From: Cyanobacteria bacterium J06635_1 | GTDB lineage: Bacteria; Cyanobacteriota; Cyanobacteriia; Phormidesmidales; Phormidesmidaceae | Reading direction: 5' to 3' | DNA length: 24,000 nt | Assembly: GCA_039820425.1 (NCBI GenBank) | Contig: JBCBQD010000032.1 | Coordinates: forward strand, 8,637 to 32,636 | Shown here: piece after piece, positions 3,487-22,191 of the stretch | Layout of the letters: each line of letters starts with the position of its first letter | How positions within the stretch are numbered: the first letter of the stretch is position 1 | Position numbers and translations under genes: made by a program | Notes under the pieces: model-generated | The model's database searches: none | What the model saw: only the letters and a program-made list of their open reading frames with translations | What the model was told of the DNA's origin: nothing

Positions 3487-4278
3487 ATGAAATCCCCCGA
3501 TGTTATTGCCTTTGACTTTGACGGCGTCATCTGCGACGGCCTGATCGAATATTTTCAAACCGCCTGGCAAGCCTACTGTCAGCTTCTCTCTCCAGCCAAT
3601 CCAACTCCCCCCGAGGGCCTGGCGGCACGGTTTTACAAACTGCGGCCGGTGATCGAAACAGGCTGGGAAATGCCAATGATACTTAAGGCGGTTTTAGACG
3701 GGTATTCCGATGCCGACATTATTGATCAGTGGCCTGAGATGGCCAAGCCCTGGTTAACCGCAGCGAACCTATCCCCGAAAACTGTGGCCAATGCGGTAGA
3801 CGGGGTGCGCGATCGCTGGATTCAAGCTGATTTGGATGGCTGGTTGGGGCAGCACCAGTTTTATTCGGGTCTGTTGGGGGTGCTAAAAGGTGCCATCTCA
3901 ACCCTTCCTACTTATATAGTCAGCACGAAAGAAAGCCGCTTCATCCAAAAGCTGTTGCACCAACATGGCGTAGATATCGACCCCCGACAGATTTTTGGCA
4001 AAGACGTCAAACGCCCTAAATACGAAACCCTCAGGCTGCTACTCGAGCAACATGCCGCCTCAGCCCCCCCGACCCTATGGTTTATCGAAGATCGCATCAA
4101 AGCACTCCAAGCCGTTAAACAACAGCCTGATCTGACCGACGTAAACCTTTTTCTTGCCGACTGGGGCTATAACCTTGAGTCTGATCGGCAAACTGCCCGT
4201 GAAGATAATCGAATCCATCTGCTATCGTTAGAACGAGTAGTACAAGAGTTCGAGTTTTGGGTAGAGGGTAAAGAGTAG
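3487..4278 (+). CDS. HAD-superfamily hydrolase-like protein
   Basis: I place the start at ATG 3487 (MKSPDVIAFDFDGVICDG...) rather than the track start 3406. HAD motif I is DFDGV. A later STKESR block fits the motif II Ser/Thr, and FIEDR fits the acidic motif IV. The upstream 27 codons of the track ORF look non-coding. Confidence 0.72.
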   Translation: MKSPDVIAFDFDGVICDGLIEYFQTAWQAYCQLLSPANPTPPEGLAARFYKLRPVIETGWEMPMILKAVLDGYSDADIIDQWPEMAKPWLTAANLSPKTVANAVDGVRDRWIQADLDGWLGQHQFYSGLLGVLKGAISTLPTYIVSTKESRFIQKLLHQHGVDIDPRQIFGKDVKRPKYETLRLLLEQHAASAPPTLWFIEDRIKALQAVKQQPDLTDVNLFLADWGYNLESDRQTAREDNRIHLLSLERVVQEFEFWVEGKE

Positions 4279-4410
4279 AGATTTTGATAGAGGGAAGATG
4301 GGGAAGATGGAGTAGGCGGACACGGAAATAGGGAGACGCAGGGACGCGGAGAGGTAGGGGCTGGCCCAGTGCGGCGGCTCGGCTGAGCTCGCAGAAGACC
4401 TACCATCTCT
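4279..4410 (+). repeat. Post-stop purine-arm/pyrimidine-arm element (HAD-like gene 3' flank)
   Basis: Begins right after the stop at 4276-4278. Contains the tandem GGGAAGATG x2. The left arm AGATGGAGTAGG (4305-4316) is near-complementary to CCTACCATCTCT (4399-4410). Confidence 0.55.
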
Positions 4411-4475
4411 GAAGTCAGTTAAATACGGAGAAACACCCTATAGGGCAAGCATTTCGCCTGCCAGAGGAAAGATCG

Positions 4476-5849
4476 ATGCTGGATCTAACTAAACTAGCTA
4501 TCCAAATGCAGGGCATCAGCAAGCATCTTGCCAAGGAAGCTGAGGCAGCCCAGCGGCGCATCAAAATTGCCCATACCCTGTTGCAACAAGCCACCCCTCG
4601 TCATGCTGAGCTAATCGAGCAGCTTTACGACTATCGCCCCCAGCTAGGCTTTACCGTTGCTGAACCGATCGAGCCGCTGGATACACGCATTGCTCTCTCC
4701 CCAGCCCCTGAGACCCACACCGTTCTCGCCACCGATGGTTCGCAAATCAACCCCAGCCACCACGAGATTGCCTACTGCTATCTGCTCAACGTCGGTCGTG
4801 TCATCTTGCACTACGGCCAGAGTCGCTACCCGCTGCTCGATAGCCTACCCGAGGTGATCTATCGCCCCGAAGATCTCTACGCCTCACGGCAATGGGGCAT
4901 TCGCACCGAAGAGTGGATGGGATATCGGCGGACAGTGGCAGAGGCTGTGGTGTTGGCGGAGATGGCGCAGGAGATAGGAGATAGGAGTCAGGAGTCAGGA
5001 GAGGGGAAAGGGCGAAAGGCGAAGGGGGAAGGGCGAAAGGGAGCAGAGGGGGCAGAGGGGGCAGAGGGGGCAGAGGGGGCAGAGGGTCTCCTGTCTGCCC
5101 AAGCCACCAGTATTGATAAGAGAAATTCGGTACTCACCCGTCCCCACCTCCCCACCTCCCCACCTCCCCACTCAAAATCCAAAATCCCCTCCCTCGCCAT
5201 GACGGATGGCTCCTTGATCTACTGGTTCCTCGACCAGATGCCTGCCGCGGCGAGGGACTGCATCCTGGAGCCCATACTCGCTGCGTGGGATCAGCTTAGG
5301 CAAGCACAGGTGCCGATTGTGGGCTATATCAGTGCGTCGCGCAGTGGTGAGGCGCTGAACTTTTTGCGATTGCAGAGCTGCCCTTTTGATGGCCCAGACT
5401 GTGCCACGCACTGCGAGGGGCAAACGGACGGTGCGCCCTGTCAGGTGTTTTCGCCGCTGCGGGATGTGACACTGTGGTCAGCGTTGCTGCAGCCAGGGGA
5501 AAGGGGACCGATCTTCAAAAGCTCAGCGGATATTTTGCAGCTTTACGGGGAAAATGCCATCTATTTTTGTTATGTGCATGTGGGTTCAGAGATAGCACGG
5601 GTTGAGTTTCCTCAATGGGTGACAGAAGACACTGTTCTGTTGGACACGGCCCTGGGGTTAACCCTGACTCAAGTTCAAAAGGGATATGGGTACCCGGTGG
5701 CGCTGGCAGAGTCGCACAATCAGGCGGTGGTGAGAGGGGGCGATCGCAACCGCTTCTTTGCCCTACTTGAGCAACAAATGATTAAAGCGGGTTTGCAAAA
5801 TGTCGGCACCTCTTATAAAGAGGCACGCAAGCGGGGCAGCATTGCCTAG
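4476..5849 (+). CDS. NurA-domain-like nuclease (conserved cyanobacterial protein) carrying an in-frame repeat insertion
   Basis: 457-aa ORF. The blocks VLATDGSQINPSHHEIAYCYLLNVG and AMTDGSLIYWFLD, plus GYGYPVALAESHNQAVVRGGDR, match my recollection of NurA-type (RNase H-like fold) proteins. aa 166-240 are low-complexity sequence encoded by the repeat cassette. Confidence 0.6.
   Translation: MLDLTKLAIQMQGISKHLAKEAEAAQRRIKIAHTLLQQATPRHAELIEQLYDYRPQLGFTVAEPIEPLDTRIALSPAPETHTVLATDGSQINPSHHEIAYCYLLNVGRVILHYGQSRYPLLDSLPEVIYRPEDLYASRQWGIRTEEWMGYRRTVAEAVVLAEMAQEIGDRSQESGEGKGRKAKGEGRKGAEGAEGAEGAEGAEGLLSAQATSIDKRNSVLTRPHLPTSPPPHSKSKIPSLAMTDGSLIYWFLDQMPAAARDCILEPILAAWDQLRQAQVPIVGYISASRSGEALNFLRLQSCPFDGPDCATHCEGQTDGAPCQVFSPLRDVTLWSALLQPGERGPIFKSSADILQLYGENAIYFCYVHVGSEIARVEFPQWVTEDTVLLDTALGLTLTQVQKGYGYPVALAESHNQAVVRGGDRNRFFALLEQQMIKAGLQNVGTSYKEARKRGSIA
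4971..5195 (+). repeat. Composite short-tandem-repeat cassette inside the NurA-like ORF
   Basis: Read directly. The modules in order are (GGAGATA)x2, (GGAGTCA)x2, GGGCGAAAGG-type G-rich modules, a 9-nt unit GCAGAGGGG x5 (5043-5086), about 50 nt of unique sequence, (CCCCACCT)x3 (5142-5169), (CAAAATC)x2, and CCCCTCCCTCGCC. The length is 225 nt, or 75 codons. Confidence 0.9.
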
Positions 5850-5985: not shown

Positions 5986-6256
5986 TTTGAATTAATCCTT
6001 AAGACAGGGGTACTATCTCCGTAATTTCCTCGAAAATACCAGGGAGGTTACTTTTTTGACTCCGGCTCGTACCGTACTCTAAACCGTGTGGTATTGTTCT
6101 TGCGGTTTATTTGAGCCCTTCTGGACCTGATGCGTGAGGCGTGAGCGCTGTCTGAATACCTCGGTGTCTGTTATCGAGATAACTCAGGACTAGCGGACTA
6201 AAGCACTATGCTCAGGGTGAAATCACCGAATCCTTAGTAGGCCCCTTTAGATACCT

Positions 6257-8584
6257 ATGTTAAGAAACCACAACACTCGCTTTAGAAGACTCAAAACCTA
6301 CGTACCGTTAGCCATTGCCCCGGCGCTGCTGCTGAGTGCTACGGTGCAGGCTGATCGGCTGATGGCCCAGTCTGCTGCCACTGAGTTTACGATGCCTGAC
6401 TCGGTGCCTGACGGTACGGCCATTAAGATCGATGGCGATAACAGCATGGCTGCCATCAACGCCGCCCTGACTGAGCAGTTTGCTCAGACGTTCAATGGCA
6501 CCGAGGTCACCGCTGAGACCTCTGGCACTGGGCCAGCCCTGCAAGCGGTACTCGATGGCGGTATTGACCTGGCTGCAATTGGCCGACCTCTCACAGACGA
6601 AGAAAAAGCCCAAGGTCTGGTTGAAATAGCCATTGCCCGTCACAAAATTGCTATTTTTGTCGACCCAGAGAATCCCTACGCTGACGACCTCAAAATTGCC
6701 CAATTTGGTCAAATCTTTCGCGGCGAAGTCACTGACTGGTCAGAATTAGGGGGGACTGCCGGGCCGATCCGATTTGTCGATCGCCCAGACACCAGTGATA
6801 CTCGCAGTGCATTCCGCAACTATCCGGTTTTCAAATCAGCCCCCTTCGAAACCGGGGCAACGGCGGATCCAGTTGCTGAAGACACTACCGATGCGGTTGT
6901 CGAAGCCCTGGGCACAGAGGGGGTTGGTTATGCCATCGCTGACCAGGTGACCGAACGCTCAGATGTGCGCATTTTGTCGATGCACAGCGTCATGCCCACT
7001 GACCAGCGCTATCCGTTCTCACAGCCGCTGGCCTACGTTTATAAAGGCCCTGAGCCTAACCCCGCGGTGCAGGCATTTTTGGGCTATGCGACGGCTCCTG
7101 AAAATGAAGGGATTGTGGAAGAAGCGCGGAAACTGGCTGCGACAGGTGCACCGGTTGTGGCTGCCCAGTCGACCACAACCCCCACTACAGAAGCAGATCC
7201 GGCCCAAGCAGATCCGGCCCAAGCAGATCCTGATGTTGTGCTGGCCCCTGCTGACGGTGCTCCGGCGGAACCGGCTGAAGTCCCTGTCGAGGAGGCTCCC
7301 GCTGATGGAGGTGCAACTGACGGTCGCGGTGCGGCTGGCTGGTGGCCCTGGCTACTGATTCCGGTAGCCGGTGGCCTACTTTGGTGGCTTTTGGGCAGAG
7401 GCGGTGGTGGGGCCGCTGGTGGGGCCGCCGCTGGAAGTGCTGCTGCCGGGGCGATCTCGCCAGTTGTCGGTGAGGATGCCAGCCGTTTAATTATGACCCC
7501 CCGCAATAGTCGAGATGGCTATGCCTACTGGGAGCTTAACGATCGCGATCGCAACCGGCTACGCCAGGCTGACAGTCCCCAGCTACGCCTCTATGAGGTC
7601 AATCCAGGTAGCACGCCCAAGCGTCCTTCTCTGAAAATGGTCCAGCAAGTTAGCTGCGACGTCGACGCCCAAGATCAGCATATTTCGATCTCAACAGATA
7701 ACAAAGCGTATCTGACCGAGTTGGGCTACGAAGCTGACGGTCGTTGGCATATGGTGGCGCGTTCAAAGCCGGTCCATGTCCCCTCAGCAGGGGCTGTCAA
7801 TGGGGAGCGTGTTGGTTTGGGGCAGGCGGCTCCGGCCACTGGTGGACGTGGACTTGGCCTCGCCGCTGGTGCCGCTGGTCTAGGGGGGCTTGCCGCTGGG
7901 GCCGCCGCCGCTGCCTCATCAGCCACCGCTAAGACGACCCAGTCTGCCACTAATCTGGCCGGGGATGTCACTAACCGGGTCAGCACCACCACAGCCGATA
8001 TCACCAACCGGGTGGGGTCTACCAAAGCGGATGCGACCAAGCAAATGGGGACGACCGCTAAGCAGATGGGCTCGACCGCTAAGCAAATGGGCTCGACCGC
8101 TAAGCAAATGGGCACAGCCACCGGTGATACCACCCAACGATTTGGTGCCAACCTCGCTGGCAAAGCTGCCGCCGTCGGCGGAGCTGCTGCTGGGGCCGCC
8201 ACTGCTGGCGGAGCCTGGTTGCGCCGCGATCGCTCTAAATTGGCGGGCGTACGACCTGATTTAGCTGAGGACGATCGGATTATCCTGGTGCCCCGTAACT
8301 CCCAGGATGCTTACGCCTATTGGGAAGTCTCGGAGGCTCACAAAAAGGCTCTGAGAGATGCGGGTGGCAAGGTGCTCAAACTCCGCATCCAAGACGTGAC
8401 CGGCATCGACATCGACCACCAGCCCCCCTTTAGCACCCAGGAATACATCTGCGAAGAAACCGCCCAAGACAGACATGTGCCGATTTTAGTTCGCGATCGC
8501 GACTACATTGCTGACCTGGGCTACGAAACCGAAGACGGCAGATGGCTGCGACTGATCCGCTCGTTCCACATAAGAGTGGGGTAA
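6257..8584 (+). CDS. Fusion protein: signal peptide + PstS-like periplasmic binding domain + TM helix + two DUF4912 domains
   Basis: 775-aa ORF. N-terminal signal (...PALLLSATVQA). The PBP/PstS-like block is IKIDGDNSMAAINAALTEQF...ETSGTGPALQAVLDGGIDLAAIGRPLTDEE...IAIFV...FRGEVTDWSELGG...DTSDTRSAF. A hydrophobic segment WWPWLLIPVAGGLLWWLLG lies at 7340-7396. There are two DUF4912-like modules: LIMTPRNSRDGYAYWEL... (about 7484-7783) and IILVPRNSQDAYAYWEV...DRDYIADLGYETEDGRWLRLIRS (about 8275-8581). Confidence 0.85.
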   Translation: MLRNHNTRFRRLKTYVPLAIAPALLLSATVQADRLMAQSAATEFTMPDSVPDGTAIKIDGDNSMAAINAALTEQFAQTFNGTEVTAETSGTGPALQAVLDGGIDLAAIGRPLTDEEKAQGLVEIAIARHKIAIFVDPENPYADDLKIAQFGQIFRGEVTDWSELGGTAGPIRFVDRPDTSDTRSAFRNYPVFKSAPFETGATADPVAEDTTDAVVEALGTEGVGYAIADQVTERSDVRILSMHSVMPTDQRYPFSQPLAYVYKGPEPNPAVQAFLGYATAPENEGIVEEARKLAATGAPVVAAQSTTTPTTEADPAQADPAQADPDVVLAPADGAPAEPAEVPVEEAPADGGATDGRGAAGWWPWLLIPVAGGLLWWLLGRGGGGAAGGAAAGSAAAGAISPVVGEDASRLIMTPRNSRDGYAYWELNDRDRNRLRQADSPQLRLYEVNPGSTPKRPSLKMVQQVSCDVDAQDQHISISTDNKAYLTELGYEADGRWHMVARSKPVHVPSAGAVNGERVGLGQAAPATGGRGLGLAAGAAGLGGLAAGAAAAASSATAKTTQSATNLAGDVTNRVSTTTADITNRVGSTKADATKQMGTTAKQMGSTAKQMGSTAKQMGTATGDTTQRFGANLAGKAAAVGGAAAGAATAGGAWLRRDRSKLAGVRPDLAEDDRIILVPRNSQDAYAYWEVSEAHKKALRDAGGKVLKLRIQDVTGIDIDHQPPFSTQEYICEETAQDRHVPILVRDRDYIADLGYETEDGRWLRLIRSFHIRVG
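7193..7230 (+). repeat. 15-nt coding tandem repeat GCAGATCCGGCCCAA x2.5 (ADPAQ)
   Basis: Read directly in the Pro/Ala/acidic linker between the PBP domain and the TM helix. Confidence 0.85.
8036..8119 (+). repeat. 21-nt coding tandem repeat x4 (T[A/K]KQMG[S/T])
   Basis: Read directly: ACCAAGCAAATGGGGACG / ACCGCTAAGCAGATGGGCTCG / ACCGCTAAGCAAATGGGCTCG / ACCGCTAAGCAAATGGGCACA. Translated: TKQMGTTAKQMGSTAKQMGSTAKQMGT. Confidence 0.9.
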
Positions 8585-8611: not shown

Positions 8612-8806
8612 GGGATGAGATGGGGCGAAGGGCGCTAGCGTCAGCCATGCCCGCAGGGCTATAAGGGGAAGGGCGAAAGGGACAGAGCACCCAAGGCTAA
8701 TCGAGAGCTCAACCACAAGGGACGCCCCCTACGAATAACCCATATTCAATCCAAAATCGCCAATCCAAAATCCAAAATCTCCCCTGCCCCTTGACCCCTT
8801 CGCCCA
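8612..8806 (+). repeat. Post-stop purine-arm/pyrimidine-arm element (between the DUF4912 and DUF937 genes)
   Basis: G-rich arms are GGGATGAGATGGGGCGAAGGGCG and GGGGAAGGGCGAAAGGGA (8665-8682). The downstream part is CAAAATC repeats followed by the C-rich arm CCCCTGCCCCTTGACCCCTTCGCCC. GGGCGAAGGG and CCCTTCGCCC are complementary. Confidence 0.7.
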
Positions 8807-9368: not shown

Positions 9369-9447
9369 TAATACGGCAGTTTTAAGCTTTGGGTTTTGAG
9401 TCAAAAATTCAACGCTCTAACTCAACACTGAAAATTGCGCATTCAAG

Positions 9448-9485
9448 AGGTCCGTTGAGTCGCCAAAGCTCAACGGACCTTTTTG
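9448..9485 (+). terminator. Rho-independent terminator of the DUF937 gene
   Basis: Perfect 12-bp stem AGGTCCGTTGAG (9448-9459) / CTCAACGGACCT (9469-9480), with a 9-nt loop, followed by TTTTT. Confidence 0.85.
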
Positions 9486-9657
9486 CTTGCTGACTACCAA
9501 GATCGCCCCCCACTCACCTACTCACCCACTCACCCAGTACCAAACCATAGACATCTCAACCGAACCCCACATCTAATATCCACTCAACCACCAGAGATGA
9601 AGTCCTTGAGATATCATTAGCGTGATTCTTACCTAGGGCCCTCTCCCCCGACTAACT

Positions 9658-10432: not shown

Positions 10433-10672
10433 ATGGAAACCCTCGCACTGACCGAAGTAAACGTTGAGAAAGTACTGGATGAGCTGCGCCCTTATCTGCT
10501 AGCCGACGGCGGCAACGTTGAGTTGGTAGATATTGACGGCCCCATCGTCAAACTACGCCTGCAAGGGGCCTGCGGCTCTTGTCCCAGCTCTGCCATGACC
10601 CTACGCATGGGGATTGAGCGCCGCCTCCGCGAGTTTATTCCGGAAATTTCGGAAATCGAACAGGTTTTTTAG
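10433..10672 (+). CDS. nfu: NifU-like Fe-S cluster scaffold/carrier protein (Nfu)
   Basis: 79-aa ORF with [44 protein letters not shown], the Nfu C-terminal domain with its CxxC motif. Confidence 0.9.
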
Positions 10673-10784
10673 GAGATGGGTGATAGGTGTTAGAGGCTAT
10701 CAAAGCATTTAAGGTCAATGCCCAAGACCTAAAGCCCAAGCCCTAGAATCTAGAACCTAACACCTAAAATCTCCCCCCCACCCT
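10672..10784 (+). repeat. Post-stop hairpin element with a degenerate heptamer array (nfu 3' flank)
   Basis: The left arm overlaps the stop codon: GGAGAT...AGGTGTTAG (10672-10693). Its complement is CTAACACCT...ATCTCC (10757-10774). The interior and right arm read in 7-nt register: CCCAAGA/CCTAAAG/CCCAAGC/CCTAGAA/TCTAGAA/CCTAACA/CCTAAAA/TCTCCCC (10721-10776). Confidence 0.7.
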
Positions 10785-10843
10785 GCTATCCTGATTTACT
10801 GGCAAGGCGATTTGCTGAGGAAATGATTGGCTGAGGAAATACA

Positions 10844-12121: not shown

Positions 12122-12243
12122 GGCAAGAGTGTAGTGGGTAGTGGGTCACTGGCCTGGAGACACAACATTTGCCAAAAGGAAGTCCACATAGCATCACTCT
12201 CCACCCTCTACCCTCTACTCACTACCTCCTGCTTCCCCTCACC
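12122..12243 (+). repeat. Post-stop purine-arm/pyrimidine-arm element (serS 3' flank)
   Basis: Starts at the base after the stop. The left arm GAGTGTAGTGGGTAGTGGGT contains TAGTGGG x2. The right arm CACTCTCCACCCTCTACCCTCTACTCACTACC contains CCCTCTA x2. The arms are imperfectly complementary. Confidence 0.6.
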
Positions 12244-12296
12244 AGAACGGTAGAATAAGAAAAGTATCTGAAAACACTTATCTGTAATTTGGCGCT

Positions 12297-13394: not shown

Positions 13395-14159
13395 GTGAGT
13401 ACATCCCCACCAATTTCTGATATCCCTTCAGAAAAGCCCTCCCCAAAACGCCTGACGAAAAAGCAAAAAGCCCTTGAGATCCTGGCCAGGCTCAAGCGGC
13501 TTTATCCTGATGCACGTTGCTCTCTGGACTATGAGACGCCACTACAGCTATTAATTGCCACCATGCTCTCGGCCCAGTGCACCGATGAGCGGGTTAACAA
13601 GGTGACGCCTGCCTTATTCGACCAGTTTCCCACTGTGCATGCCTTTGCCGAGGCTGAGGTGACCGAGATCGAAGCCCTGGTCAAGTCCACTGGGTTTTAT
13701 CGCAACAAGGCCAAAAATATTCACGGGGCTTGCTGCAAAATTATCGCCGACTTTGGGGGTGAGGTCCCCCAGAGTATGGCAGAGCTGCTGCAGCTGCCGG
13801 GGGTGGCCCGTAAGACGGCGAATGTGGTCCTGGCCCATGCCTTTGGCATTAACGCTGGAGTCACCGTCGATACCCATGTCAAGCGACTCACCAACCGATT
13901 GGGCCTGACTAAACATGAGGTGCCCACCAAGATCGAGCAAGACTTAATTAAACTGCTGCCCCAGCCGGATTGGGAAAATTGGTCAATCCGATTGATTTAT
14001 CACGGGCGAGCCGTATGCGACGCCCGCAAGCCCGCTTGCGATCGCTGTGAGCTGAGCGACCTGTGCCCATCAGGGCCTAAAATCCTGAAAGCCAACACTC
14101 AAAAAGCGACCTTGTCTCAATCCTCCCAGACTGTGTCAAAGCCCAAGCGCAGTCGGTAG
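13395..14159 (+). CDS. nth: Endonuclease III (DNA glycosylase/AP lyase)
   Basis: 254-aa ORF with a GTG start. Motifs: [17 protein letters not shown], the HhH-GPD block [21 protein letters not shown], and the 4Fe-4S ligands C-X6-C-X2-C-X5-C ([17 protein letters not shown]). It has short basic N- and C-terminal extensions. The exact start is uncertain. Confidence 0.92.
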
Positions 14160-14269
14160 GATGGAGGTTGTTCAGGCTCTACCTGCTCGGCCAGCTCTTT
14201 ACAGGAATCCTTTTGAGCCACTACAATAGGAGACCGTGGCTAATAAAATATAGGACAAAGCAAGCTCAG

Positions 14270-14854: not shown

Positions 14855-17104
14855 ATGGACTATTGGGAGTTTCTTATCCAGCAAGAAGGCGACCAGACCT
14901 GGTTACCCCTTGAAACAAAACAGGTAGAAATTTTGGAAGGGCGGTACCGCATCGCCGCCCATACCAGCCATATCAGTGCCCCTGTCGATATCAGAGTCAG
15001 CCAGCTGATGACCACTGAGATGCCGCCTCGACGACGGGTGCGCAAGCGTCGCGGTCAAACAAATGATCATGGACTGATCATTATCTTTCCATACATGCAG
15101 CTCCAGGCAGGACACTGGGAAGTCACCTGCAGCACGGTCAACGTCATGGATGACCTGCTGGGCGGGGGATGGCAATATCACGTGCATCTGCAAGTCTTAC
15201 CCCGCGCCGAAGATGACTGGGACCCAAACTGGTCCAATTCTGAAAAAGCCCTCGGCAAGGCACCAGACGAGGAACCTGGTCTGGAAGCCCAGCAGGTGGC
15301 CGAGTCAATCTCCCAACAAATGGTCGAGGGTCTGTTCCAGGAAATTGACGAGGAAATAGATACGGTTGTGGCTTCAACCACAGCGCCAAGTCCAGAGACA
15401 GCGGCCCCTCGCTACTACGAAGTCCATCTGCAGCAACAAGCCTACATGGCTGAGCACGACCAGACCCTGGACCTTACAGGCCAAGTCTTATCTCCCAACA
15501 CTGAACCCCCCAAGGAGGTTGATGGCGAGCTGTGGGTACAGCTTCGAGATCCCCAAACCGCATACGTCGTCTTTGAGGTTCAGCAACCGCTCCAAATTGC
15601 GCCTCAACCCACAGACTTTACCTTTGAGTTAACGCTGCCTGACTATATTCAAGATGTTCAAACCCGTGTTTTAGTTGGGGAGTTAGCCGTTTTTGATCGT
15701 CACGATCCGATCGCGGCGTTGGCCTCAACTACGTTTACGCTTACCCTGGGGTTAACCCAGCTGCTAGATCGACTAGCTAACACGACAAACGATACGTCTG
15801 CCGAACTCCTAGGAGAAACCTTCGAGGAGGAGGTCTCTGTTTATCCAGGTTCGACCGAGCCCTTCAGCAAGCCCCCGGAGAATCCCGCTACGCTCATTTC
15901 TCCTGATTTGCCGCTGCCCCCCTCTAAGGTAAAAGTGCTCGTACCCTCCTTGGGACTCACCCTGCCACCCCAAATCCATCAGTCAGACAGCGAGACAATA
16001 CCATCCGATCGCACCCCAACGCTACCCAGCTTCCCGCCGCAAAACAAGCCCCCTGGACCTGCCCCGAGCATCGCTGAAGCCGCTGCAGATATGCCCGCCC
16101 CCCCGGTCCAAGCGGGGGAGGCGCGGCTTGATGACGAGCCCACCGCCACCCTGCCCAATTTAGACATCGAGACAGCCGCAGCCAGCGATCTCCCCCATCA
16201 CTCCCTGACTGACTTACCCACCGACAGCGACGCACTCCAAATGCCAGCGCTGTTCGAGAGTCATGGCATTGATGATGATGACCTCGAGGCTGATTTGGTT
16301 GCTGCGGTCTTAGACGACGAGGGTTTGGAGACCTCCTTCGAGCCTGAAGAGGTAGACCCTGAGCTAGAGCCCCCAGATTTGTTCTTTGAAGAAGAAGAGA
16401 GTTATCAGCAACCGGTCCAGGAAGATCAGCTGACGGCCTCTTTTCAGTCACTCAAGCTGCAAGAGCGGTTTTGGCAAAAGCTGACCTCGCTCACCTTGGA
16501 AGATCATCAGAAAGCCGCGGACTTAAAAGCAGGCATGCAGGCGGCTGGGGTCGCCGAGACTCAGACTGCTTCCCAGCCCACCGCCCAGGTCAAGGAGACC
16601 GTGCCCCAGACAGCAGCGCCAGACAGTGAACGCGCTGACTTGTCAGCCCAAGAAGTCGTGATCTACGAAGAAAATCCCCCCGCGGCTCCCCCGATTAACC
16701 CCGCAGCCCTATCGTCTGTTCCTCAAGACTTGGCAGAGCTGCCCATTTTACCCACACCCACCTTAGAGGTACCCAATCGGGAACTGACCGCAGGGGAAAC
16801 GATCTCGATTGGGATTCGGCTGGCCCCCACTAGCAATCGTCCTTACGTTAAGGTTTGGATGAACGACCTGCAAACTCGAACCCTGATTGAGGAGCCCCGC
16901 TTACTCATGCATCTCACCCCAAACGATCGGGGAGAGCTTGAAACCTACATGCGAGTTAGAGTGCCACGGGGCTGTCTGGATTTACAAATTGCTGCGATCG
17001 CAGTCGATATGACCACCCTGCAAGAAAGCCGCAAGAGTGTTGCCAACCGCCGGGTTATCCCAGCGAATATGCCGAGTCTGTCCTGGGATGAGTTTGAGGT
17101 GTAG
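14855..17104 (+). CDS. Large hypothetical protein with beta-rich terminal modules and an acidic/proline-rich disordered centre
   Basis: I place the start at ATG 14855 (MDYWEFLIQQEGDQTWLPLE...), giving 749 aa. Folded-looking N-terminal (aa about 1-130) and C-terminal (about last 130 aa) parts flank long D/E/P/Q-rich stretches. I recognise no family motif. Confidence 0.7.
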   Translation: MDYWEFLIQQEGDQTWLPLETKQVEILEGRYRIAAHTSHISAPVDIRVSQLMTTEMPPRRRVRKRRGQTNDHGLIIIFPYMQLQAGHWEVTCSTVNVMDDLLGGGWQYHVHLQVLPRAEDDWDPNWSNSEKALGKAPDEEPGLEAQQVAESISQQMVEGLFQEIDEEIDTVVASTTAPSPETAAPRYYEVHLQQQAYMAEHDQTLDLTGQVLSPNTEPPKEVDGELWVQLRDPQTAYVVFEVQQPLQIAPQPTDFTFELTLPDYIQDVQTRVLVGELAVFDRHDPIAALASTTFTLTLGLTQLLDRLANTTNDTSAELLGETFEEEVSVYPGSTEPFSKPPENPATLISPDLPLPPSKVKVLVPSLGLTLPPQIHQSDSETIPSDRTPTLPSFPPQNKPPGPAPSIAEAAADMPAPPVQAGEARLDDEPTATLPNLDIETAAASDLPHHSLTDLPTDSDALQMPALFESHGIDDDDLEADLVAAVLDDEGLETSFEPEEVDPELEPPDLFFEEEESYQQPVQEDQLTASFQSLKLQERFWQKLTSLTLEDHQKAADLKAGMQAAGVAETQTASQPTAQVKETVPQTAAPDSERADLSAQEVVIYEENPPAAPPINPAALSSVPQDLAELPILPTPTLEVPNRELTAGETISIGIRLAPTSNRPYVKVWMNDLQTRTLIEEPRLLMHLTPNDRGELETYMRVRVPRGCLDLQIAAIAVDMTTLQESRKSVANRRVIPANMPSLSWDEFEV

Positions 17105-21277: not shown

Positions 21278-21824
21278 AGAAGACGTCAAGCCAAACTCAG
21301 AGCCGACTAATGAGGCAGCAAACTCGGACGAGGCCAGCGCCATTGTCGAAGCAGGCCCGGTCTCAAGCTGGCTCAGCGAACAGGGATTTAGCCACGAAAC
21401 CCTGGAACCTGACCACCTTGGTCAAGAAGTCCTAAAAGTCGAGCCCGCCTTCTTAATTCCCTTTTGTACGGCGCTCTATGCCTACGGATTTAACTACTTG
21501 CAATGCCAGGGGGCCTATGACGCTGGCCCGGGGCAGCCATTGGTGAGCTTTTACCACCTGATCAAAGTCAGCGACAACGCCGACACCCCTGCCGAAGTCC
21601 GCATCAAGGTCTTTTTGCCCAGAGATAATCCCAGGGTGCCCTCGGTCTATTGGATCTGGAAGTCCGCCGACTGGCAAGAACGTGAAAGCTTTGACATGTA
21701 TGGCATCTATTACGAAGGCCATCCTAATCTTAAGCGCCTGCTCATGCCCGAAGACTGGGTAGGCTGGCCCCTGCGAAAAGACTACATTTCGCCTGACTTT
21801 TACGAGTTGCAAGACGCGTATTGA
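21270..21824 (+). CDS. ndhJ: NAD(P)H-quinone oxidoreductase subunit J (NdhJ)
   Basis: 184-aa ORF overlapping the ndhK stop by 8 nt (ATGGCTGA). Motifs: [32 protein letters not shown]. Confidence 0.95.
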
Positions 21825-22012
<188 letters not shown>

Positions 22013-22191
22013 AATTTTGTACTTTTGTTGCGTTTCGCAAAGTAACTTAAAGCGCTTCCCCTTTTCACTTAACAAAATTGTTGCATTCAAAATGTGGCGA
22101 CTGGATTTATGCGATTATTGGACGCAGTGAAATATTAAGACTTCCCAGTCTTACGGGCTGTCCAATCTTAAATAGGAAAAAGGACGTTCTC

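Follow-up and report, generated by a model that had tools for sequence, protein, structure and literature searches.

Several ingredients of the case reported here are already known, namely intergenic repeats that lie in frame within proteins, heptamer arrays in cyanobacteria, heptamers that form G-quadruplexes (G4), and short tandemly repeated repetitive (STRR) arrays in the RNase P RNA gene. STRR heptanucleotide arrays were reportedly found inside the cyanobacterial RNase P RNA gene by Vioque in 1997, and small dispersed repeats (SDR) of Nostoc are said to have been described by Elhai et al. in 2008. G-rich heptamer repeats of Nostoc and Xanthomonas, GGGGA(C/T)T, form G4, and those of Nostoc occur near gene ends and partly within genes (Rehm et al. 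2015, PMC4692102); their intragenic fraction in Nostoc is sizeable, and that work describes no protein family with an in-frame site conserved from genus to genus (PMC4692102). Intergenic repeat elements that lie in frame within proteins include Rickettsia palindromic elements (RPE), BRE, BOX/RUP/SPRITE, and ERIC (PMC3184786, PMC10969869). Here we describe a cassette of short tandem repeats within the NurA-family nuclease gene of Cyanobacteria bacterium J06635_1. The gene lies on a 24,000-nt stretch of contig JBCBQD010000032.1, called the window below, to which positions refer unless a locus of the genome scan (L number) is named. The block is probably a translated, structurally tolerated, STRR-like repeat cassette in a loop of NurA, a passenger that is remodelled in frame.

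The cassette and its host gene

The preliminary description of the window, made from its letters, had reported a 225-nt block at 4971-5195 in frame within a NurA-like open reading frame (ORF) of 457 aa. Its coordinates and translation were confirmed, and the product matches PF09376 (E 3e-41, 142 bits compared with a gathering score of 21) in a single alignment stretch that spans the insert, with residues 81-419 on profile positions 1-254. Orthologues that are 60-85% identical to this product are annotated as NurA. Their alignments have highly conserved flanks on either side of a segment, from about E162 to P238, that is unalignable and variable in length. The block as first drawn, codons 166-240, is offset 9 nt rightward at both ends from this segment; bounds of about 4962/4971-5186 give the variable block a translated size of 72-75 codons. 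The gene and the parts of its insert are as follows.

4476..5849, + strand: NurA-family nuclease gene, host of the cassette, 457 aa (ORF list, Pfam, orthologues)
4962..5186, + strand: hypervariable segment, the in-frame repeat cassette, codons 163-237 (orthologue alignment; predicted local distance difference test, pLDDT)
4969..5001, + strand: heptamer arrays AGGAGAT x2.7 (4969-4987) and AGGAGTC x2.7 (4983-5001) (Tandem Repeats Finder and our own scan)
~5002..5042, + strand: GGGCGAA-type purine-rich module holding the 18-mer GGGGAAGGGCGAAAGGGA, identical to 8665-8682
5043..5086, + strand: 9-mer array GCAGAGGGG x4.9 (Tandem Repeats Finder and our own scan)
5087..5140, + strand: 54-nt non-repetitive core encoding LLSAQATSIDKRNSVLTR, homologous to the core of L001 (pairwise DNA alignment; proteins P0001 and P0123)
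5141..5171, + strand: 8-mer array TCCCCACC x3.9 (Tandem Repeats Finder and our own scan)
5173..5186, + strand: heptamer CAAAATC x2, identical to 8766-8779; CAAAAYY heptamers recur in the NurA inserts of many genera
5187..5213, + strand: conserved host codons P-S-L-A-M-T-D-G-S, where the NurA fold resumes (strand 239-244, invariant D244)

The layout of the insert runs from purine-rich 7/9-nt repeats through a unique core to pyrimidine-rich 8/7-nt repeats, and the encoded peptide is rich first in E/G/K/R and then in P/S/L/H. The block had been taken to consist entirely of short tandem repeats; the arrays were recovered, but 5087-5140 is non-repetitive, and 5187-5195, the final 9 nt, encode Pro-Ser-Leu and belong to the conserved codons of the host, with P238 and L240 nearly invariant. 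The insert contains canonical G4 motifs (at least four G-tracts of three or more G with short loops), two on the sense strand (5024-5052, 5057-5086) and one on the antisense strand (5137-5161).

In an AlphaFold2 model built with 121 sequences (mean pLDDT 75.8, predicted template modelling score 0.76), a helix at residues 144-175 is followed by residues 176-238 without secondary structure and by a strand at 239-244 that leads into a well-modelled C-terminal half; pLDDT is below 50 over residues 189-233. Residues 176-238 are thus predicted to form a disordered excursion between the helix and the strand that carries the invariant Asp244, which agrees with orthologues that span the same gap with about 7 residues. 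The surface loop that the preliminary description had proposed to look for by modelling appears in the model as this unstructured loop. Alignment, model and distant homologues together place the insertion, which is in frame, where the structure of this conserved protein is permissive.

NurA is a DNA-repair, end-resection nuclease whose gene usually adjoins the HerA ATPase gene in an archaeal operon. A scan of 10 window ORFs turned up no HerA; the neighbours of the NurA gene encode a HAD-like hydrolase and a PBP_like_2/DUF4912 protein. The NurA fold is RNase H-like, and the best fold match of the model in the PDB is to a NurA, though weak (2ygk, S. solfataricus NurA, E 0.026). Three acidic residues that flank the insert, D87, E156, and D244, are invariant or nearly so among 121 close and 38 distant homologues. 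This NurA family also has four invariant or nearly invariant cysteines (C302, C309, C313, and C322; CPx4PDCx3Cx8PC, window 5379-5441) and an N-terminal 50-residue helix (residues 4-56, window 4485-4643), and its conserved residues 91-107 have pLDDT below 50 in the model. The window has a cyanobacterial signature, with 15 HIP1 sites (GCGATCGC) per 24 kb, and all close protein relatives are cyanobacterial. The neighbouring ORF 6257..8584 (PBP_like_2 + DUF4912) contains in-frame 15-nt and 21-nt tandem repeats at 7191-7230 and 8039-8113 that encode ADPAQ and AKQMGST; these units are multiples of three, unlike the 7/8-nt units of the cassette.

Conservation, age and turnover of the loop

A protein search returned 2,534 relatives at E <=1e-10, the best 120 of which span 372-458 aa and share 57-85% identity with the window protein when the block is set aside. 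A genome scan recovered the NurA loci of 80 cyanobacterial species, which with the window make a set of 81 species, and a profile search of 1.84 billion representatives gave 1,708 family members, mostly of 385-410 aa. The spacing between E156 and D244 is 89 residues in the window, compared with 21-29 residues in 35 of 36 sampled distant members and 42 in the remaining one, with about 24 being typical. Among the named members of the sampled distant clusters are hot-spring Synechococcus and Gemmatimonadota. A linker of about 7 aa spans the site in the distant family and in several cyanobacteria, such as Synechococcus PCC 7335 (7 aa), and this short spacing in the distant family implies that the cassette is an insertion gained within crown cyanobacteria. 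Origin by gene fusion, with a spacer trapped between two former genes, was rejected because the distant homologues are single proteins with a link of about 24 residues.

Across the 81 species, the segment is 10-102 aa long (median 34), with more than 15 aa in 72 species and 15 aa or fewer in nine. The preliminary description had proposed to check whether aa 166-240 are absent from orthologues; the distant family is short there, and the 72 cyanobacterial species carry a segment. The proposals that the block is an insertion and that it keeps the frame open were upheld, the first by the longer spacing and the second by the reading frame, which runs through the segment in 81 of 81 species. Within the inserts, frame 0 has no stop codon in 7.3 kb, compared with about 95 expected from the off-frame density, and the other two frames have 12-14 stops per kb, as does the coding DNA on either side. 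An open frame 0 beside stop-rich other frames indicates that the segment is under selection for read-through, which speaks against introns, inteins and bypassed elements. An intron, intein or structured RNA likewise found no support, as no Rfam match reached the gathering score and frame 0 is stop-free; 75 aa is too small for an intein. A general robustness of the repeats, which would leave them open in all frames, was rejected because the off-frame stop density equals that of flanking coding DNA. The AGGAG repeats were also considered as an internal ribosome-binding site and rejected, as the next ATG is about 200 nt away and no Shine-Dalgarno-like sequence precedes it.

The open frame also bears on whether the cassette is a phase-variable contingency locus, in which adding or dropping a single 7- or 8-nt unit would shift the frame and turn NurA off until a second slip restored it. 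Such a switch would suit units of 7 and 8 nt inside an ORF, which are indivisible by three, and the fast intraspecific change described below. In a natural metagenome variant of a related NurA (L082 3440-3700, ENA scaffold BRYA16-1...scaffold_1604), an AAG codon of the insert has become TAG; gene calling splits it into ORFs of 196 and 216 aa, the latter of which begins at the conserved Met of LAMTDGS, and the variant provides a single anecdote for a split gene. We nevertheless regard phase variation as very unlikely, given that none of the 81 species genomes is frameshifted, that full-length cluster members are all in frame, that the arrays are short (2-5 units), and that the lesion of this variant is a point nonsense change and no slip.

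The closest relatives show how the segment changes. L001, a metagenome-assembled genome (MAG) that is the best genome match (85% protein identity), and L003 (80%) both open the segment with the same ATGGCGCAGGAG(A/T)TAGGAGA, and L001 also retains the core and the terminal CAAAATC x2. Their arrays differ from those of the window, with GGACGCGG x4 and CCCATTC x3.4 in L001 and CACCCCT and CCACTCAC in L003, and DNA identity with L001 and L003 is 0.59 and 0.47 in the segment, compared with 0.87-0.88 in the NurA coding flanks. A homologous start combined with divergent arrays indicates a cassette that was inherited and quickly remodelled, with no landing in this genome; as judged from these alignments, it was already present in the common ancestor of the window organism and its 80-85% relatives. 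At closer range, one 90%-identity protein cluster has five members with five inserts, all of CAAAATC-type heptamers in differing registers, and proteins that are more than 90% identical carry differing QNPKSK-type inserts within total lengths of 407-417 aa. The pattern of variation suggests that replication slippage of 7-, 8-, and 9-nt units would drive this fast turnover. Purifying selection on the catalytic C-terminal half of NurA would purge frame-breaking variants, so that the cassette would always be read through as a disordered linker. We think that the cassette itself is a passenger without a specific role for the enzyme.

The same layout recurs with other units in many genera, where purine-rich 7/8/9-mers, often CAAAAYY heptamers, are followed by pyrimidine-rich 7/8-mers; examples come from Stenomitos, Leptothermofonsia, Lyngbya HA4199, Leptolyngbya BL-A-14, Chroococcidiopsis, Egbenema, and Nostocales. 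The insert of the Aliinostoc orthologue (L056) is built of CCCCAAT/CCCCAGT units, which we take to be the STRR1 consensus. The window holds no tandem CCCCAGT, CCCCAAT, TTGGTCA or CAACAGT, the canonical STRR1-3 units. A homologous segment conserved across genera, which the preliminary description had named as counter-evidence, was found in part, with the architecture conserved and the sequence not.

Recurrence of this kind could also reflect selection on the peptide, as a flexible charged-then-proline-rich tether that would depend on its length or charge to serve NurA oligomerisation or partner binding and whose DNA repeats are only its mode of growth. The frame that is open in 81 of 81 species, the recurrent composition (E/G/K/R, then P/S/L/H), and the predicted helix 144-175, which reaches into the first 10 insert residues, are what such a tether would show. 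A selected linker is nonetheless unlikely because lengths range over 10-102 aa, near-identical proteins differ in insert sequence, and the distant family and several cyanobacteria manage with about 7 aa; the composition, moreover, follows from purine-then-pyrimidine DNA, which is also present in non-coding cassettes.

Many database NurA entries are labelled 'partial' and start or end at the cassette (P0126, which begins from AMTDGS, and clusters of P0003, P0086, and P0055), and short-read assemblies often break at the NurA repeat cassette. Such breaks, as in P0126, could raise the suspicion that the block is an assembly artefact in which collapsed or chimeric repeats were mis-joined within the gene. 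This is extremely improbable, given that the independent MAGs P01_G01_bin.38, P01_F01_bin.4, and P01_D01_bin.44 and complete genomes of other genera have in-frame cassettes at the same codon. Complete genomes with long inserts include those of Leptothermofonsia ETS-13, Leptolyngbya BL-A-14, Egbenema FJBBOT, and Aliinostoc HNIBRCY26.

Kin cassettes and a shared repeat pool

Three strings of the block had been reported to recur in intergenic elements of the window, and all three were found again at the positions given, each with a chance expectation of 0.00 from 100 dinucleotide shuffles: the 18-mer at 5025 recurs at 8665, that at 4983 recurs at 21904 and also at 21911, and the 14-mer at 5173 recurs at 8766. 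The AGGAGTC array of the insert recurs in an intergenic element at 21901-21933. At least five window spacers have cassettes with a purine-rich and then a pyrimidine-rich arm, each at or just past the stop codon of a + strand gene. The cassettes outside the NurA gene are as follows.

4244..4420, + strand: cassette in the spacer upstream of NurA, with GATTTTG (complement of CAAAATC) and GGGACGCGG units
8620..8806, + strand: intergenic purine-to-pyrimidine cassette, 36 nt past the stop of ORF 6257..8584
near 9385-9540: weaker cassette
10672..10790, + strand: intergenic cassette after a small NifU-like ORF, with inverted arms GGAGATGGGTGATAGGTGTTAG / CTAACACCTAAAATCTCC, read from the sequence
12122..12250, + strand: intergenic cassette right after the seryl-tRNA synthetase stop, with GTAGTGG on the left and CTCTACC on the right
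21823..22013, + strand: intergenic cassette from the NdhJ stop codon, with arms GGCGAAAGGGCGAAGGGGGAG / CTTCGCCCTTCCCCTTTCGCC and GTCAGGA x4.7

The cassette at 4244-4420 starts within the 3' end of the HAD-like ORF, whose stop (4276-4278) is spanned by a 26-mer x1.9, and that at 8620-8806 has arms GGGCGAAGGG.../...CCCTTCGCCC, CAAAATC heptamers, and G4 motifs on both strands. The element 21818-22018 folds far below its shuffles (z -4.4). Across the 24 kb, canonical G4 motifs occur only in the NurA insert, in the element 8656-8805 (8656-8681 and 8781-8805), and in one other place (16676-16709); their arrangement in the element 8656-8805 is that of the NurA insert, with sense-strand motifs in the 5' arm and antisense-strand motifs in the 3' arm. 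The shared exact modules, the layout and the G4 motifs together support the kinship of the NurA block with the 3'-flank elements. Roughly half of the short spacers behind + strand genes of the window hold such cassettes.

Kinship invites the explanation that a 3'-flank element resembling a MITE (a miniature transposable element with inverted repeats) recently transposed into NurA in this genome. Exact strings of 14-18 nt common to two intergenic elements of the window, a size of about 215 nt, and imperfect complementarity of the arms are all in keeping with a MITE. The explanation is largely refuted, and in our judgement most improbable, because relatives hold homologous cassettes at the same codon. 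Nor does the insert have MITE hallmarks: no direct repeat that could be a target-site duplication was found between 4962-4971 and 5186-5198, and a search for terminal inverted repeats at its boundary gave only 12 nt at 83%, partly in host codons. Its arm complementarity is generic to purine and pyrimidine tracts, and it is without the right-hand arm of the GGGCGAAGGG/CCCTTCGCCC pair that intergenic copies bear. No alignable full-length consensus was found among the copies, which have only modules of 12-18 nt in common within the window, and the 18-mer GGGGAAGGGCGAAAGGGA is no marker of a dispersed family, with 43 single matches in the metagenome scan, all in non-cyanobacterial contexts and at about chance level. 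The preliminary view of the block as a chimeric 3'-flank copy therefore stands as to kinship and fails as to a landing in this genome, since relatives at 85% and 80% protein identity share the start of the cassette. One of the chance 18-mer matches (L104 ~14060-14200, Ga0105237_10004465, 43% GC) lies in a purine-then-pyrimidine hairpin directly past a TGA stop; judging from its seemingly unrelated organism, 3'-flank cassettes like those of the window may also exist outside cyanobacteria.

The repeat units of the loop are shared with intergenic cassettes of their own genome. Inserts have 4.61 12-mers per 20 kb in common with their own +/-10 kb, compared with 1.11 +/- 0.5 in permuted genomes, and none of 20,000 permutations reaches the observed value. 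Units of relatives' inserts are present in the intergenic cassettes of the window, and the insert unit ATTACCC of L001 is the complement of a GGGTAAT array just upstream of the L001 NurA gene. Perfect 7/8-nt arrays of at least three units number 106 in 1.29 Mb; the NurA loop holds 24 of them and the remaining long ORFs together just 5, which makes NurA a strongly preferred, though not the sole, protein-coding host of such arrays. Purine-to-pyrimidine tract pairs outnumber the reverse by 31 to 7 in 1.3 Mb, and of these 31, the NurA loop accounts for 12, whereas the other 19 are mostly intergenic. The sharing of units could come about by gene conversion, by small modules that re-insert, or by a generator peculiar to each genome. 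Heptamer arrays in other long ORFs (370-894 aa) are found at L062 13773-13808, L058 11118-11157, and L030 13886-13912; their units are TCCAAAA x5.1 and GAGTTTT x5.7, both of CAAAAYY type, and CCTCAAC x3.9.

Cassettes of the same kind also lie directly upstream or downstream of NurA at L025 9711-9936, L028 9794-9973 and 11376-11472, L036 9831-10006, L046 9844-10000, L062 11285-11664, L039 11348-11440, and L001 840-900. A hairpin module of about 26 nt (CTCTAGC..GGCGC..GCGCTA) interrupts the CAAAACT arrays in the NurA inserts of L036 (~10603-10660) and L018 (~6210-6262) and occurs in an intergenic cassette of L028 (2478-2645), which hints at nested small elements.

Several observations weigh against a passenger kept by slippage and purifying selection. 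The cassette persists at one loop across several cyanobacterial orders, and its polarity is strong, purine then pyrimidine, in 26 of 53 inserts of at least 30 aa and reversed in none; together this is more order than a pure passenger needs. The density of G4 motifs in the inserts is about 23 times that of the remainder of the loci (15 inserts with sense and 15 with antisense motifs in 9.8 kb, compared with 199 motifs in 1.29 Mb overall). Leaf order in the neighbour-joining tree interleaves long and short loops, and so does not tell one origin followed by losses apart from several gains. Gene conversion or small-module re-insertion between the loop and dispersed cassettes, suggested by the shared strings, would probably act beside slippage.

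The unreversed polarity and the G4 density suit instead a functional nucleic-acid element, in which a G4 or a long purine/pyrimidine hairpin, at the level of DNA or mRNA, would delay transcription or translation or flag the mRNA for processing and so tune NurA expression or the co-translational folding of the two halves of NurA. Such an element would also fit the sense-then-antisense order of G4 motifs in both the window insert and the element 8656-8805, the cassettes that immediately flank NurA in several genera, and the in vitro formation of G4 by Nostoc G-rich heptamer arrays near gene ends (PMC4692102). On present evidence, it is unlikely, though worth keeping in view: the arms do not co-vary (matched and mismatched pairing give -0.303 and -0.295 kcal/mol per nt, p 0.19), the window insert has a fold z-score of only -0.9, nine species have 15 aa or fewer at the site, and half of the long inserts are without G4 motifs or polarity. 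The Rfam search of the insert gave no family at gathering score, with chance miRNA-like matches at E 0.36-0.7, and no intrinsic terminator was found in the NurA insert or in the element 8620-8806. A specific conserved hairpin in the insert was rejected, with z-scores of -0.9 and -2.0 for whole-insert folds and matched arm pairing equal to mismatched. A wider version is a long shot: filamentous cyanobacteria may have, in the purine-to-pyrimidine cassettes, an active repeat system that has not been described before, with units exchanged or regenerated genome-wide, which would account for the genome-specific unit pools, and with the NurA copy and its flanking cassettes functionally tied to NurA. 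In that case, G4 or hairpins might gate NurA expression, or NurA might act on such structures and thereby make its own gene a hotspot. A tolerated passenger, remodelled in frame, remains the explanation that we consider probable.

Comparison with described repeat systems

The cassette resembles STRR sequences in its tandem 7-nt units (AGGAGAT, AGGAGTC, and CAAAATC), in its occurrence in a cyanobacterium where such arrays abound in gene-adjacent spacers, and in being tolerated where a functional gene, conserved elsewhere along its length, is variable. It differs in being protein-coding and in frame, in its 7/8/9-nt units, in its composite build with polarity and a unique core, and in having no canonical STRR1-3 units. 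With the G-rich heptamer repeats of PMC4692102, it has in common G-tracts, arrays of about 4-5 units, sense-strand positions near stop codons, and convergent opposite-strand pairs, whereas its units are GCAGAGGGG and GGTGGGGA-type and its G4 are predicted from the motif. Size, intergenic abundance and inverted-repeat character recall the cyanobacterial MITEs Nezha and MaeMITE (PMC3184786); unlike these, the cassettes have no target-site duplication, shared terminal inverted repeats or alignable consensus, and no linked transposase was noted. The ~26-nt hairpin module in the CAAAACT arrays of L036, L018, and L028 resembles the very small mobile repeats nested in repeats that characterize SDR, and no such module was identified in the NurA insert of the window.

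Intergenic-type tandem-repeat DNA can thus persist for evolutionarily long times in an essential-looking enzyme gene as a disordered loop. The NurA loop offers a phylum-wide marker for the spread and homogenisation of repeat units, for the tolerance of loops to insertion, and for the cost of coding G4-prone DNA. In practice, short-read assemblies break at the site, which yields 'partial' annotations of NurA, and the locus could be used for typing strains. The unexplained polarity, G4 enrichment and preference for NurA leave a little room for a more interesting role, which we consider quite unlikely.

The nearest parallel among repeats within proteins is RPE, which likewise brings about 100-200 nt of intergenic-type repeat DNA into a conserved gene, in frame and at a position compatible with the fold. 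RPEs, however, come as sequence families coding for a conserved peptide and are inserted in many genes. The NurA cassette has no conserved peptide, since even proteins more than 90% identical differ there and the layout alone is conserved, and it is passed down at a single site, where turnover of its units remodels it. What appears to be new is that such a cassette occupies a single loop of a single conserved enzyme in much of a phylum, with a fixed polarity, and that this cassette tracks the repeat-unit pool of its own genome.

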